From the UHGV virus genome UHGV-0143126: a stretch of 19,594 nucleotides of DNA; one strand, 5' to 3'. Under the pieces are notes generated by a model that saw nothing but the letters and a program-made list of their open reading frames with translations, was not told where the DNA came from and searched no databases. The stretch is from a virus. The translations under genes and the position numbers were made by a program. Shown here piece after piece: positions 7,624 through 17,119 of this stretch (the first letter of the stretch is position 1; each line of letters begins with the position of its first letter).

Positions 7624-7914
7624 ATGGAAGGAAATGATTACGACAAACTTCGTGCATTAATTGCGCAAAATGCCATAGCGCGAAATCTTGGTGTGACGCC
7701 GCAAGCGGTGAATCAGTGGTTTTCAAAAAGCACAATTCCTGCTCGTTTCGTTTTACGAGTATGTGAAGTAGTTGCATGGAAGGTTACGCCTCATGGCTTA
7801 AGGCCAGATCTTTATCCTCACCCTGAAGATGGAATTCCTAACTTGTTACGCAAAAGCCTAAATCCAAGTTCACCACACAGAGCGGATGGAATACACGCAG
7901 GAGATAAACAATGA
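7624..7914 (+). CDS. Cro-like repressor of the YdaS/Cro type, 96 aa
   Basis: ...AIARNLGVTPQAVNQWFSKSTIPARFVLRVCEV... resembles Rac YdaS as recalled; divergent from cI; stop overlaps the next start (ATGA). Confidence 0.65.
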   Translation: MEGNDYDKLRALIAQNAIARNLGVTPQAVNQWFSKSTIPARFVLRVCEVVAWKVTPHGLRPDLYPHPEDGIPNLLRKSLNPSSPHRADGIHAGDKQ

Positions 7915-8618
7915 ACACCGCAATTTTTAACGGCAAAGCATCCATGACCAGCGTTGAGATCGCAGAGCTGGTGGGAAGCCGACCAGATAGTGTTAAGAGA
8001 ACTATTGAAACACTGGCTAAAAAGGGAATCATCCAATTTCCACAGACTGTGGAAATTGAGAATAAACAATCACTTGGGCCTCGCCGATTTTCTAGCGCGT
8101 ATGTATTCGAAGGTGAACGAGGTAAGCGCGACAGCATCATTGTCGTCGCACAGCTCTGTCCTGAATTCACAGCTCGCCTGGTAGATCGCTGGCGCGAACT
8201 GGAAGAACAGATCCGTAAGCCAATGAGCGAAATCGAAATGGTTGCCGCGATGGCTCTTGAAGCCGTTCGCCAACAGAAACGGATCACTCAGGTGGAAGAA
8301 AAAGTCAGCCACGTTGCTGAAACAGTCGAGCAAATTAAAAAGGGCACTATTCGTGAGGGCTATGCCGGATATCGCCAACTGAAAGCAAAAACCGGTTTGT
8401 CAGATGATAAATGCCGCAATCTGGTGAACGCCTATCAGATTCCTACAGACACCCATGAGTTCATGACGCCGGACGGATTGTTGTCACGTCGCGCAATTGT
8501 TGCTGTGGAACCGTTTATGGCTACTTTTTATCGGGTTATGGAGGAAGCAGAACCGCGAGGGACTCGCTGGTATCACCCGAAAATGGGGTTATTTCAGGTT
8601 ATTGGTTGGCAGCGGTGA
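7911..8618 (+). CDS. Rha-family phage regulatory protein (antirepressor-like N-terminal domain), 235 aa
   Basis: N-terminal ...SMTSVEIAELVGSRPDSVKRTIETLAKKGII... typical of the phage Rha domain; GGAGA RBS. Confidence 0.6.
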   Translation: MNTAIFNGKASMTSVEIAELVGSRPDSVKRTIETLAKKGIIQFPQTVEIENKQSLGPRRFSSAYVFEGERGKRDSIIVVAQLCPEFTARLVDRWRELEEQIRKPMSEIEMVAAMALEAVRQQKRITQVEEKVSHVAETVEQIKKGTIREGYAGYRQLKAKTGLSDDKCRNLVNAYQIPTDTHEFMTPDGLLSRRAIVAVEPFMATFYRVMEEAEPRGTRWYHPKMGLFQVIGWQR

Positions 8619-8642: not shown

Positions 8643-8841
8643 TCACTCAACATCAATAACGGGGAGCTGTTTCGCATAAAACGGTTCCGAAACATCCAAG
8701 AACAGTTCTAAAGATATCAGCAGCTATATGATCATTTCAAGACCAAATATTGATTCTGCAATTTCGGGACGTTACACTGTCTCCGCACCTTATAAAGCGG
8801 GTGCCGGGGGTCGCAGCCCGGAATTGCATACGGCGATATAC

Positions 8842-8861
8842 GACGCGCCAGCGTCTTTTTT
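8842..8861 (+). terminator. Weak terminator-like element (5-bp stem GACGC/GCGTC then TTTTTTA)
   Basis: Short stem, 4-nt loop, T6 run. Could be an attenuator ahead of the replication-gene block. Confidence 0.3.
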
Positions 8862-9027
8862 ATCGTCCGCGCTCACGCACGCCAGAATTATGGTGGGCTG
8901 GGCAGGGGAGCCGAAAGGCTCGCCGGTTTCCGTATGCGCCGGTACTGCGAACCCTGTTCAGTCTGCCACCAGTGAGTTTCGCAGCTCCGGTGGTGGAAGT
9001 TATCCATTGCATACGGAGGCTGCCATC

Positions 9028-9390
9028 ATGGCTACAGTCCCAACTTCCCCATACCTGAAAATTGAAGTTGTCAACGGCAAGGCCGTTATTTTCTCCCTGC
9101 ATGTTGCCTGCCACTTCAAGCGCATGCATCAGAATATCGTCGACAAAATCGAGTATCTGAACTGCTCGCGTGAATTCTTCTCCCGTAATTTCATACCGGG
9201 TACTTACCACGTGTATGGCGATTCCCTGCGTGGTTATTACATCACCCTTGATGGCCTGATGATGCTTCAGCTTGGGTTAAGTCTGCGCACAATGCGGTAC
9301 TACGAGAGCTGCATTGAAGCATTCCATGAGGCAGAGAACAGCCTGAATCTTACCGCTTTCTGCTGTAATCAATGGGAGGTTCGCCCATGA
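9028..9390 (+). CDS. Hypothetical protein, 120 aa (start moved to ATG with GGAGG RBS)
   Basis: ORF-track frame 8728..9390; the 5' 300 nt has no RBS and a Ser/Ala/Gly/Pro-rich translation, so ATG 9028 is preferred. Confidence 0.55.
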   Translation: MATVPTSPYLKIEVVNGKAVIFSLHVACHFKRMHQNIVDKIEYLNCSREFFSRNFIPGTYHVYGDSLRGYYITLDGLMMLQLGLSLRTMRYYESCIEAFHEAENSLNLTAFCCNQWEVRP

Positions 9391-13663: not shown

Positions 13664-14659
13664 GTGACCGTGAGAGCACTACTGACCCCTGAAATTGCCC
13701 CGCGTATGGGGATCGTATTGTTCAGGCCTGGTTCAGAGCTGATGCCCCTGTTTATGCAGGGGCGTGTCCTGCTGGAGCCTGAGCCGGAACGTTATTCATC
13801 TTTCGCCAGTGGTGCCGTTCCGGCGGCATTACAACCGCTGGCGGATGATCCTGCCGTTCGGGCCGTGTTCCGCAATGAGGCAGTGATCCGTCGTGCTGGT
13901 GGCGTGGAATGTCTTGAAAGCTGGTTACTTCGTGAAAAGGGCTGTCAGTGGCCTCATTCCAACTGGCACAGCGAGAACATGACCACAATGCGACACGCTC
14001 CGGGCGCAATCCGTCTGTGCTGGCACTGCGATAACCAGCTGCGTGATCAGTTCACGGAACGGCTGGAATCAATGGCAACGGATAACTGTGCCCGCTGGGT
14101 GTTGTCTGTTGTGCGTCGGGAGCTCGGTTTTGACGACAGTCACGTTGTGACAATGCCTGAACTGTGCTGGTGGCTGATTCGTAATGATCTGGCGGATGCC
14201 TTATCGGAAAGTGCAGCCCGTAAGGCACTGAGATTACCGAAGCCTGTTGTGCCGTCTGTTACCCGGGAAAGTGACCTTGTGCCTTCGGTTACTGCCACCA
14301 GCATCATCCAGGATAAGGCGAAAAAGGTGCTGGCGCTGAAAGTGGATCCGGAGTCGCCGGAGTCTTTTATGTTACGCCCAAAACGTCGCCGCTGGGTTAA
14401 TGAAAAGTACACGCGCTGGGTTAAGACGCAGCCGTGCGCATGTTGCGGAAAGCCTGCTGATGATGCCCACCACCTGATTGGTCATGGTCAGGGTGGAATG
14501 GGTACAAAAGCGCATGACCTTTTTGTGTTGCCTTTGTGCAGAAAACACCATGACGAACTGCATGCGGATACCGTGGCATTTGAAGAGAAGTATGGTTCCC
14601 AACTGGAGCTGATATTTCGTTTTATCGATCGCGCGCTGGCGATTGGTGTGCTGTCCTGA
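13664..14659 (+). CDS. DUF968-like protein with C-terminal HNH-type Cys/His motif, 331 aa (start uncertain)
   Basis: C-terminal ...[43 protein letters not shown]...; occupies the nin-region position between replication genes and Q. Confidence 0.5.
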
Positions 14660-14676
14660 TTTTGTGGAGAAAGTTG

Positions 14677-15060
14677 ATGCGTGATATTCAGATGGTTCTT
14701 GAACGCTGGGGTGCATGGGCGGCAAATAATCATGAGGATGTGACCTGGTCGTCCATTGCTGCCGGTTTTAAGGGATTAATTCCTTCAAAAGTAAAATCTC
14801 GCCTGCAATGTTGTGACGATGACGCGATGATCATTTGCGGGTGCATGGCCCGTCTGAAAAAGAACAACAGCGATTTACACGATTTATTAGTAGATTATTA
14901 TGTATGTGGTATGACATTCATGTCACTGGCAAGTAAGCATTGCTGCTCGGATGGTTATATCGGGAAAAGGTTACAGAAGGCTGAGGGCATAATTGAAGGG
15001 ATGTTAATGACATTAGATATCCGGTTAGATATGGATATCGTTGCTAATAATTCTAATTGA
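14677..15060 (+). CDS. Q: Late-gene antiterminator Q (QuuD / phage-82-21 type), 127 aa
   Basis: [34 protein letters not shown]... matches QuuD-type Q as recalled; GGAGAAAG RBS before ATG 14677. Confidence 0.75.
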
Positions 15061-15082
15061 TATGCAATTGTTTACTAAAAGT

Positions 15083-15111
15083 TATTAAAAATGGGGCGTG
15101 GAAACGCCCCC
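15083..15111 (-). terminator. Intrinsic terminator for minus-strand transcripts (porin 3' region)
   Basis: Hairpin GGGGCG-UGGAAA-CGCCCC followed on the minus strand by AUUUUUAAU. Confidence 0.5.
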
Positions 15112-15248
15112 AAAATAAAGGGTAATATATAACAGAAGGTTTATATAGTAAGAAGTAAGGTAGTGCTTCTAAAGGAAGTGGCTTGAGGGCTCCACTTATA
15201 TGTTGCGGAGGCAAAGCCTCCCGCAACATATCTTTTTCGTAAGTCAGA
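15086..15248 (-). ncRNA. Candidate IpeX-like small RNA from the porin 3' UTR
   Basis: ~160-nt structured segment between the porin stop (15249) and the minus-strand terminator. Placement is by analogy with my recollection of ipeX next to nmpC in DLP12; not verified. Confidence 0.3.
15197..15238 (+). terminator. Strong plus-strand intrinsic terminator downstream of Q (candidate tR')
   Basis: 14-bp stem with one bulge (ATATGTTGCGGAGG / CCTCCCGCAACATAT), 5-nt loop, then CTTTTTC. Confidence 0.6.
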
Positions 15249-16331
15249 TTAGAACTGATAAACCAGACCTACAGCGGCGATGTCGTCGGTATCAATACCA
15301 GCTGTTTTGGTAAACTTACTATCGTCAATTAAGTTGATTTTGTAATCAACAAAAGTGGACATGTTTTTATTAAAGTAGTAAGTAGCACCGACATCGACAT
15401 ACTTGACTAAGTCTCGGTCACCATGAACACCAAGGTCTTTACCTTTTGACTGAAGGTAAGCAACAGATGGGCGCAGACCGAAGTCAAACTGATATTGTGC
15501 TACTGCTTCAAAGTTTTGTGCTTTGTTTGCAATATGGTTATTACCAAAAACGGTCATATTCTGAGTTTCAGAATATGTGGTAGCCAGATAGATATTGTTC
15601 GCATCATATTTCAGGCCTGCAGCCCATACTTCCGCATTTTTGCCGGAGGCATTGAATTTGCTCTTACCATAGGCGACCTGACCGTCAGTGCGATCTGATT
15701 TAGCATAGGTTGCACCCACGCCGAATCCTTCATACTCATAAGTAGTGGAGAAACCGAAACCATCACCATTGGCTTCAGTTACGTCAGTGCGGTCATTTTT
15801 ACCCTGATACTGAGCAGCAAAGTTCAGGCCATCGACCAGACCAAAGAAGTCGTTGTTACGATAAGTTGCAACACCAGTTGCACGTTGAGTCATGAACACG
15901 TCGGTTTGAGTCCAAGTGTCACCACCGAATTCTGGCAGGACGTCAGTCCACGCACCGATGTCGTATGCTACACCGTAGTTACGGCCGTAATCGATGGAGC
16001 CGTAGTCACCGAATTTCAGGCCAGCGAAGGCAAGACGGGTTTTATCTTTGGAGGAACCTTGAGATTCAGCGCGGTTGCCTTTGAATTCATATTCCCACTG
16101 ACCGAAACCAGTCAGTTGATCGTTGATTTGGGTTTCACCTTTGAAGCCAAGACGGGCATAAGTAGTATCACCATCATCTGCATCATTAGAGGAGAAGTAG
16201 TGCTTAGCATTAACTTTCCCGTACAGATCCAACTTGTTACTGTCTTTATTATAAATTTCAGCTGCCTGAGCAGACATCGCCATCAGTACTGATGCAGCTA
16301 CAGCAGAAATTGCCACTGTTAATTTTTTCAT
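15249..16331 (-). CDS. nmpC: OmpC/NmpC-family outer-membrane porin, intact, 360 aa
   Basis: Signal peptide [23 protein letters not shown], mature start AEIYNKD, porin repeats, C-terminal ...VGLVYQF. Start set at ATG 16331 rather than the upstream in-frame ATG at 16391. Confidence 0.8.
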
Positions 16332-16757
16332 CGTGAGCCCTTTTTTTGAACTATTATTAAAAAATGATGTCACTGCGCGATAAATATTCATCTAATCAAT
16401 GTGATTATTTCAAGATGTAAGTTTTGGTTTCTCGTTTGATTTGTGAAGTAGATCTCTATTTTTATCTGAACTTTTTTCTATCGAATCCTATTCATGGCTC
16501 TTGGCTGAATAAAAATAAATCTATTAGCCAATTTATATTAATGTCTGTTATTTATAAGCGCTCTATAATTTGAAGGTTCAATTTAAACAGGCTAAAAATA
16601 ACACTGGAAATTATTTGTTGGTTATTTGTTGAGATTTGCTTATGTATTTGTAGTGGTGTTTTCAATACTCGGTAGCATTCTCGCAAATATCATTTAGTGG
16701 TTTACGTACGTAAAAAATTGGTTATGCTATTAAGAGTGGTCACTTCGTCACACAGCT

Positions 16758-16791
16758 TAAACCCGCCGTCGAGCGGGTTTTTCCATTTTTT
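16758..16791 (+). terminator. Plus-strand intrinsic terminator ~110 nt upstream of the holin gene
   Basis: AAACCCGC-CGUCGA-GCGGGUUU followed by TTCCATTTTTT. Confidence 0.6.
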
Positions 16792-16903
16792 GAGTCTCGA
16801 TATTAGCTGATAACCCAATACCTGAGTTATTCACTGACTCCGAGTCTGTTACGTTTCGTAGTATTCCCTCAATTTACACCCGCTTTGTCTGCGAGGTGGG
16901 GTT

Positions 16904-17119
16904 ATGAAATCCATGGATAAGTTAACAACGGGTGTCGCCTATGGCACCTCAGCAGGTAGTGCCGGATACTGGTTTTTACAGCTGCTAGATAAAGTCACGC
17001 CCTCACAGTGGGCGGCAATTGGAGTGCTGGGTAGCCTGGTATTTGGCCTGCTGACGTACCTGACAAACCTTTATTTCAAGATTAAAGAAGATAAGCGCAA
17101 GGCTGCGAGAGGTGGATAA
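16904..17119 (+). CDS. S: Class II pinholin of S21 type with dual-start motif (M1/M4: antiholin/holin), 71 aa
   Basis: [28 protein letters not shown]...; two TM segments; GAGGTGGGG RBS; stop overlaps the endolysin start (TAATG). Confidence 0.85.

Follow-up and report, generated by a model that had tools for sequence, protein, structure and literature searches.

An IpeX-type porin tail behind the Q gene of a lambdoid prophage, and a probable late promoter and terminator beyond the porin

Does the intergenic DNA behind a Q antiterminator gene hold the late promoter and terminator on which Q acts, or does it belong to the gene that faces Q from the other side? The question is raised by a stretch of 19,594 nt from the virus genome UHGV-0143126 (hereafter the window), the right-hand part of which is a lambdoid prophage. 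Here Q on the plus strand and a porin gene on the minus strand are convergent, with a spacer of 188 bp (15061-15248) between their stops. A first-pass annotation had read this spacer in two ways, as the site of a late promoter PR' and its terminator tR' on the plus strand and as the source of an IpeX-like small RNA on the minus strand. We argue below for the second reading and against the first: overall, we consider it probable that the spacer is the IpeX-type tail of a porin cassette and that PR' and tR' lie beyond the porin gene.

The porin tail on the minus strand

The elements that frame the spacer are the following.

14677-15060, plus strand: Q antiterminator of the QuuD type, 127 aa (Pfam PF06530, E=2.6e-53)
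15083-15248, minus strand: very probable IpeX-type 3' untranslated tail of the porin transcript, 166 nt, five stem-loops (homology and fold)
15249-16331, minus strand: phage porin of the NmpC/Lc type, 360 aa (Pfam Porin_1, E=1.5e-151)
16904-17119, plus strand: holin S, the first late gene 3' of PR' (Pfam PF04971, E=2e-35)

The window Q is a distant relative of the Q21 structures 6p18 and 6jnx (E=1.4e-6). Over residues 1-120, it is 94% identical to QuuD of E. coli K-12 and 80-83% identical to the Q proteins of Stx phages of the VT2-Sakai/933W type (80% for VT2-Sakai); likeness to relatives stops at codon 120, near position 15037. The stop codon of the porin gene occupies 15249-15251, and matching records annotate this gene as porin, OmpC or OmpD. 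Holin S, named essD in the annotation of matching genomes, is followed by R and Rz. Further upstream in the window, we observed adjoining matches to isrK (57 bits) and to the C4 antisense RNA (80.4 bits), at 8785-8861 and 8886-8973 on the plus strand, both above the Rfam gathering score. Both fall within an ORF at 8728-9390 (phrog_995, 'transcriptional regulator') that has an Ant-like anti-repressor gene just 5' of it (7911-8618). This region looks like a P1/P7/Gifsy-type immunity (immI-like) module, and the ORF may in reality begin 3' of the two RNAs.

Directly 3' of the nmpC/lc-type porin ORF and on the same strand, the element 15248-15083 has close counterparts at the same place in other phages and prophages. 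The spacer is 92.4-93.3% identical, over 218-221 nt, to sequences of K-12, BLR(DE3), phage PA-2 and the hybrid 434B. The K-12 match (92.7-93.3%) sits between quuD and nmpC in prophage DLP12; the spacers of PA-2, where it is the region after lc, and of 434B, which carries the DLP12 region, are each 92.4% identical to that of the window. DLP12 and PA-2 are the homes of IpeX given in published accounts; their spacers have one and the same sequence, from which that of the window departs at 13 positions (substitutions or indels). IpeX is described as an RNA of 167 nt from DLP12 that is made as part of the porin transcript (PMC12197685), and is reported in the literature to lower the host porins OmpC and OmpF. 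In the window, the terminator tail ends 166 nt beyond the porin stop. The suggested correspondence between the minus-strand 3' extension and IpeX is thus borne out by an identity of 92-93% to the DLP12 quuD-nmpC spacer along its full length, and we have little doubt that the minus-strand RNA of the spacer is of the IpeX type. Such an element is of an already-known kind, and ordinary in this position.

Two database observations bear on how this element is found. Rfam 15 gave no IpeX match in the window, nor did it give one on K-12's own ipeX region; it therefore holds no IpeX model, and the blank in the window says nothing either way. In the NC_000913.3 annotation that we examined, the ipeX feature is absent, though small RNAs such as micF are annotated there. 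We also computed duplex energies between IpeX and the ompC and ompF leaders, and discarded them because full-length folding without intramolecular structure yielded meaningless long duplexes.

Folding of the spacer gives the following elements.

15083-15110, minus strand: predicted intrinsic terminator of the porin/IpeX transcript (listed by the pattern scanner)
15126-15147, minus strand: stem-loop with the hexamer TAATAT in one arm, folding on both strands
15151-15170, minus strand: small stem-loop of the IpeX-type RNA (predicted fold)
15176-15197, minus strand: small stem-loop of the IpeX-type RNA (predicted fold)
15198-15231, both strands: bulged hairpin of 14 bp with one bulged C and loop AAA
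15233-15237, plus strand: T5 run after this hairpin (C-TTTTT; in RNA, C-UUUUU-CG), read from the sequence

The minus-strand terminator consists of a stem at 15110-15093 (GGGGCGT-TTCC-ACGCCCC) and a U-rich tail, ATTTTTAATA, at 15092-15083. Its hairpin has a folding energy of -13.8 kcal/mol (z -3.1) and differs from the K-12 allele within the loop only. On the plus strand, stem 15093-15110 is followed by CAAAATAAAG, so that this terminator works on the minus strand only. Both its location, previously given as 15083-15111, and the proposed end of the porin transcript about 160 nt past the stop hold up, the computed distance being 160-166 nt. The hairpin at 15198-15231, at the other end of the spacer, is the more stable of the two: on the plus strand it reaches -21.9 kcal/mol, against -7.7 +/- 2.4 for shuffled sequences (z -5.8; 0 of 200 shuffles as stable), and on the minus strand -22.5 kcal/mol (z -5.6). 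A strong plus-strand terminator had been placed at 15197-15238, and the hairpin is indeed there. Only the plus strand has the T5 run; read in the other direction, the stem leads into AAGUGGAGCC (tail AAGUGGAG) and a U run is lacking. Stem and T5 together are predicted to form an intrinsic terminator on the plus strand alone. The hairpin is missing from the terminator list of the pattern scanner, most likely because of the bulge that breaks its stem. Three further hairpins (15176-15197, 15151-15170 and 15126-15147) stand between the two terminators, and the whole minus-strand RNA of 174 nt folds with a z-score of -5.2. In the interval 14600-17000, terminator-like sites number 3, for 2.1 +/- 1.5 expected. 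This count is within chance; what carries the case is stability, conservation and homology. Inside the porin coding sequence, the porin strand also shows a terminator-like hairpin, CATATTCTGAAACTCAGAATATG, with a T-rich tail (15577-15555, minus strand), which is probably a chance match.

The interval 15040-15260 is matched in 2,501 of 5,426 complete E. coli genomes (about 46%), and in 678 of these 2,501 the spacer is at least 99% identical. Relatives of the window Q occur in 401 phage records. Only 36 of these, PA-2 and 434B among them, have the spacer, and in each case it continues into the 3' end of a porin gene, which argues that the spacer belongs with the porin and not with Q. When 185,579 species genomes were scanned for exact 20-mers, only E. 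coli matched, apart from two Streptomyces-labelled contigs and one Bacilli MAG that are probable contaminants. One partial match (H30), considered as a porin-less context, was rejected: it corresponds to an IS1 insertion. Mobile DNA often hits the ipeX/porin cassette. An insertion splits the ipeX leader at one locus (L030, from about 3597 onward), IS1 lies inside ipeX in strain GF54 (L089, 2604-3400), and IS5 lies in nmpC in K-12 (L001, 3419-4399). In the soil isolate E. coli SC434 (L088), a porin with an IpeX-type tail (87% identical) is found beside ybcM and yedK, at a locus without Q, S or the PR' module; this is a remnant that keeps the cassette only.

Sequence variation was analyzed in 84 loci, which reduce to 16 variants with two main alleles. 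No true compensatory change is observed among the 16 variants, whose diversity is too low for covariation analysis to have power, and we therefore turned to the distribution of polymorphisms. Variable sites amount to 4 of 94 paired positions versus 13 of 72 unpaired positions (one-sided Fisher p=0.004). Hairpin 15198-15231 is kept, and its T5 run unchanged, in 16 of 16 variants. In the two small stem-loops at 15176-15197 and 15151-15170, the alleles differ in the loops. The one substitution seen in a stem (A to G at 15168) leaves a G-U pair in the minus-strand RNA but would put C opposite A in the plus-strand RNA; this single G-U-compatible variant is what variation says about the strand of action.

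Proposed roles of the hairpin at 15198-15231

In the IpeX-type RNA on the minus strand, hairpin 15198-15231 comes first among the stem-loops and starts 17 nt beyond the porin stop. Directly 5' of the stem on this strand lies an unpaired A-rich stretch, ACGAAAAAG, and the position of the hairpin suits the protection of a processed end. For the plus strand, we tentatively favor a working terminator that would insulate the porin from transcription leaving Q. The combination of stem and T5 fits the standard intrinsic-terminator pattern, although the U tract is short (5 U). In two related phages, PhiR40_1 and 1H12, a clear plus-strand terminator likewise separates Q from a cargo gene on the minus strand, at the same position. 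In K-12, an rrnB terminator added in the quuD-nmpC spacer is reported to have changed nothing, from which the authors infer that intrinsic terminators are already present (PMC11677980). This result is equally explained by a lack of transcription from quuD. In SfII, cdtI and a Klebsiella phage, the spacers between Q and minus-strand cargo measure 3-28 bp and contain no terminator; these phages have no room for one, and insulation is therefore not obligatory.

The same hairpin might act as a minus-strand RNA only, either as a 3' stabilizer of the porin message or as a 5' stem or processing site of IpeX, in which case the T run on the plus strand would be the mere complement of an A-rich single-stranded cleavage site and the terminator role would vanish. 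We regard this as somewhat unlikely. It would agree with the reported processing of IpeX from a longer porin transcript (PMC12197685), with the A-rich stretch just before the stem, with the lone stem variant, which pairs on the minus strand only, and with the several relatives that lack a terminator between Q and their minus-strand cargo. Against it stand the fit of stem and T5 to the terminator pattern and the plus-strand terminators of PhiR40_1 and 1H12. The two roles can coexist.

The probable late promoter and its candidate terminator

A candidate late-control module is found on the far side of the porin gene.

16701-16728, plus strand: PR' late promoter, with -35 TTTACG at 16701-16706, a 16-bp spacer and -10 TATGCT at 16723-16728 (alignment to VT2-Sakai)
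16729-16758, plus strand: conserved initial transcribed block TTAAGAGTGGTCACTTCGTCACACAGCTTA, probable Q-utilization region (conservation)
16759-16785, plus strand: best tR' candidate, hairpin AAACCCGCCGTCGAGCGGGTTT (16759-16780) followed by a T run (listed by the pattern scanner)

The late promoter (TTTACG, 16 bp, TATCAT), qut and terminator annotated in VT2-Sakai align base for base to window positions 16699-16790, and the hairpin of the tR' candidate is homologous to the terminator annotated at 2983-3005 in that phage. Transcription from PR' is predicted to start near 16735. The block at 16729-16758 overlaps the feature annotated as 'putative Q-utilization' in VT2-Sakai and hardly varies among 8 phages with Q proteins 41-100% identical to that of the window; judging from such sequence comparison, it is probably the Q-utilization region. 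About 30 nt after the PR' -10 (TTAAGAGTGGTTACTTCGCCACACAGCTTAAAC) are near-invariant even in phages with a Q only 41-49% identical and with differing -35 regions. The same block is seen in VT2-Sakai (L005, 2951-2982) and in other loci (L006 and L093-L096). This Q family probably uses it for Q loading and pausing; we know of no mapping of such a site.

A profile of the module, built from six porin-less phages, has a single match in the window, at 16723-16782 (E=1.4e-19). It matches 90 of 96 loci; four of the six loci that do not match were examined and either end before the region or are remnants. The module is also present in K-12 DLP12, PA-2, PhiR40_1, SfII, phiP27, cdtI and a Klebsiella phage, whose Q proteins are 41-94% identical to that of the window, and the homologous PR' of PhiR40_1 is listed by the pattern scanner. 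In the window, the module lies 119 bp upstream of S. By pattern scan, the interval from PR' to S contains no plus-strand terminator-like site other than 16759-16785, which makes this hairpin the best tR' candidate.

In VT2-Sakai, the annotated promoter, qut and terminator lie directly at the end of Q, and a further terminator follows some 260 nt after the start. Differential RNA-seq and Term-seq data for Sakai are reported to place the PR' start close to Q and a stable 3' end 258 nt downstream (PMC7547250); the mapped start and the distance fit the annotation (2957 + 257 = 3214). Since this stable 3' end is at +258, the Sakai hairpin homologous to 16759-16780 must be read through at least partly. 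In the window, the hairpin at 16759 may be efficient enough to serve as tR'. For K-12, Rueggeberg et al. (2015) reportedly described essDp, a promoter that depends on Q(DLP12) and lies immediately upstream of essD. Their study is cited in PMC7918800. We are confident that PR' and tR' are located at 16701-16785 and not within the spacer.

What, then, of the PR' and tR' that had been proposed for the spacer itself? There, PR' would lie in 15061-15196 with TAATAT as its -10, a short plus-strand RNA would end at 15198-15237 acting as tR', and Q would carry polymerase antisense through the porin gene to the lysis genes. This arrangement has some appeal: hairpin 15198-15231 is a plausible plus-strand terminator, it stands just after Q, where lambda has its PR' and tR', and the TAATAT hexamer is present at 15123-15128, exactly where it had been described. 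In phage 1H12, whose Q is a close relative, a terminator directly follows Q and a recognizable module is absent elsewhere. However, the pattern scan finds no promoter-like site in 15061-15248 and no acceptable sigma-70 promoter could be assembled there. The best -35 available to TAATAT is TGGAAA (4/6, at 18-bp spacing, for 8/12 matches overall), which is not usable, and the hexamer itself is part of one arm of the inverted repeat 15126-15147. Comparison of the spacer with the post-Q DNA of related phages reveals no similarity (best pairwise E 0.5), and the module profile of the six relatives is silent in 15061-15248. Furthermore, the spacer travels with the porin rather than with Q. The module of this Q family lies 1.6 kb further on; because late transcription begins after the porin, a Q-loaded polymerase never crosses 15197-15238. 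A PR'-tR' unit within the spacer is thus highly improbable. Two related candidates were rejected. The combination of TAATAT and a downstream TATAGT, taken as a promoter with a sigma-dependent pause element, belongs to the inverted repeat 15126-15147. A 9-mer common to the spacer and 1H12, ATATAACAG, is at chance level (E 6.3).

Phage 1H12 deserves a separate comment. Its Q is 87% identical to that of the window, and no copy of the PR' module was found between Q and the end of its genome. Directly after Q it carries a hairpin, AGCCAGCCTCCCCAAAGGCTGG, followed by T8 (L007, 2940-3010; also L097), which resembles the StxS terminator of VT2-Sakai (L005, 3186-3214). Given this phage without the module, the Q family may use more than one site.

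That the spacer hairpins are functionless chance inverted repeats in AT-rich intergenic DNA would agree with the unremarkable number of terminator-like sites in 14600-17000, but is extremely unlikely in view of z-scores from -3 to -5.8, a spacer conserved in about 2,500 genomes with substitutions that avoid stems, and homology to an experimentally characterized element, IpeX.

A porin cassette between Q and its probable target

Similarity to relatives ends at codon 120 of Q (about 15037) and returns at the -35 of PR' (about 16699). The 1.66 kb in between are therefore a porin cassette, inserted between Q and its PR' and made up of the last seven Q codons, the IpeX-type tail, the porin gene and the porin 5' control region. 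The order Q, cargo, PR' module, lysis genes recurs in SfII, cdtI, the Klebsiella phage, PhiR40_1 and phiP27, with cargo on the minus strand in the first four and on the plus strand in phiP27. The interval from about codon 120 of Q to the PR' -35 is a recurrent cargo slot (loci L006, L093, L095 and L096): it holds a porin in the window, DLP12 and PA-2 and unrelated minus-strand genes in SfII, cdtI, PhiR40_1 and the Klebsiella phage; in VT2-Sakai it is empty.

We propose the following model. The porin promoter would drive a minus-strand transcript beyond the stop of the porin gene. After the 15231-15198 hairpin, which lacks a U run on this strand, and three smaller stem-loops, the transcript would end at the intrinsic terminator at 15110-15083. 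The last 166 nt of this transcript would be the window's IpeX allele, which may lower OmpC and OmpF, such that a lysogen would replace its host porin by that of the phage. On the plus strand, 15198-15231 and its TTTTT would most likely form a one-way stop for polymerases leaving Q without antitermination factor, and would shield the convergent porin gene, expressed in the lysogen, from antisense transcription. Q itself would load at PR' (16701-16728, start near 16735) and override the hairpin at 16759-16785 before holin S.

The two one-way terminators of the spacer are crossed, that is, each transcript passes the hairpin of the other strand before reaching its own stop. As a consequence, an RNA from the Q side, ending near 15238, and the porin/IpeX RNA, ending near 15083, would be complementary over about 150 nt. 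We may speculate that the 3' end of the early/Q transcript is a built-in anti-IpeX, which we consider very unlikely. If this were so, it would pair with IpeX on induction, leading to double-strand-specific cleavage and to the end of host-porin repression, or else the 3' end of the Q transcript would help to process IpeX; the lytic switch would then be linked to outer-membrane composition.

These results matter mainly for annotation. In widespread lambdoid prophages of E. coli, the DNA after Q should be read as a porin cassette with an IpeX-type RNA, and the late-control map corrected in that the Q-controlled late promoter would sit after the cassette, directly before the holin gene. Mapping of Q targets, late-gene reporters and searches for StxS-type small RNAs from PR' should thus look at 16701-16785. 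More generally, cargo can split Q from its site of action, and this split recurs in several relatives.

Among known systems, the IpeX elements of DLP12 and PA-2 match the window element in position, strand, number of stem-loops (five) and length (167 versus 166 nt). The window allele is distinct from that of K-12, with 13 substitutions or indels almost all in loops, and the window porin gene is intact, whereas in K-12 an IS5 element splits nmpC. The late cassette of Stx phages 933W and VT2-Sakai, the source of StxS, matches 16699-16790 in its -35, 16-bp spacer, -10, initial block and first hairpin with T run. Two features set it apart: in VT2-Sakai, PR' overlaps the end of Q, whereas in the window the 1.66-kb porin cassette separates them, and the second Sakai terminator at +258, which yields StxS, has no counterpart before S in the window.

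The lambda PR'-6S RNA-tR' unit follows the same logic as the window module, with a constitutive late promoter, an early stop and Q-dependent read-through (10.1101/651190 and established knowledge). Lambda Q belongs to another family than the window Q (PF06530, Q21-like fold), there is no sequence similarity, and the plus-strand hairpin at 15198-15231 is not part of a lambda-type PR'-tR' unit. Finally, lambdoid phages carry morons, self-contained cargo cassettes each with its own promoter and terminator. The porin cassette is moron-like in that a promoter region, a minus-strand terminator and a putative terminator facing incoming transcription all belong to it, and in that it sits between phage genes that are adjacent in relatives. 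It is unlike morons in that its 3' tail would also work as a regulatory RNA and in that the final seven codons of Q come from its left end.
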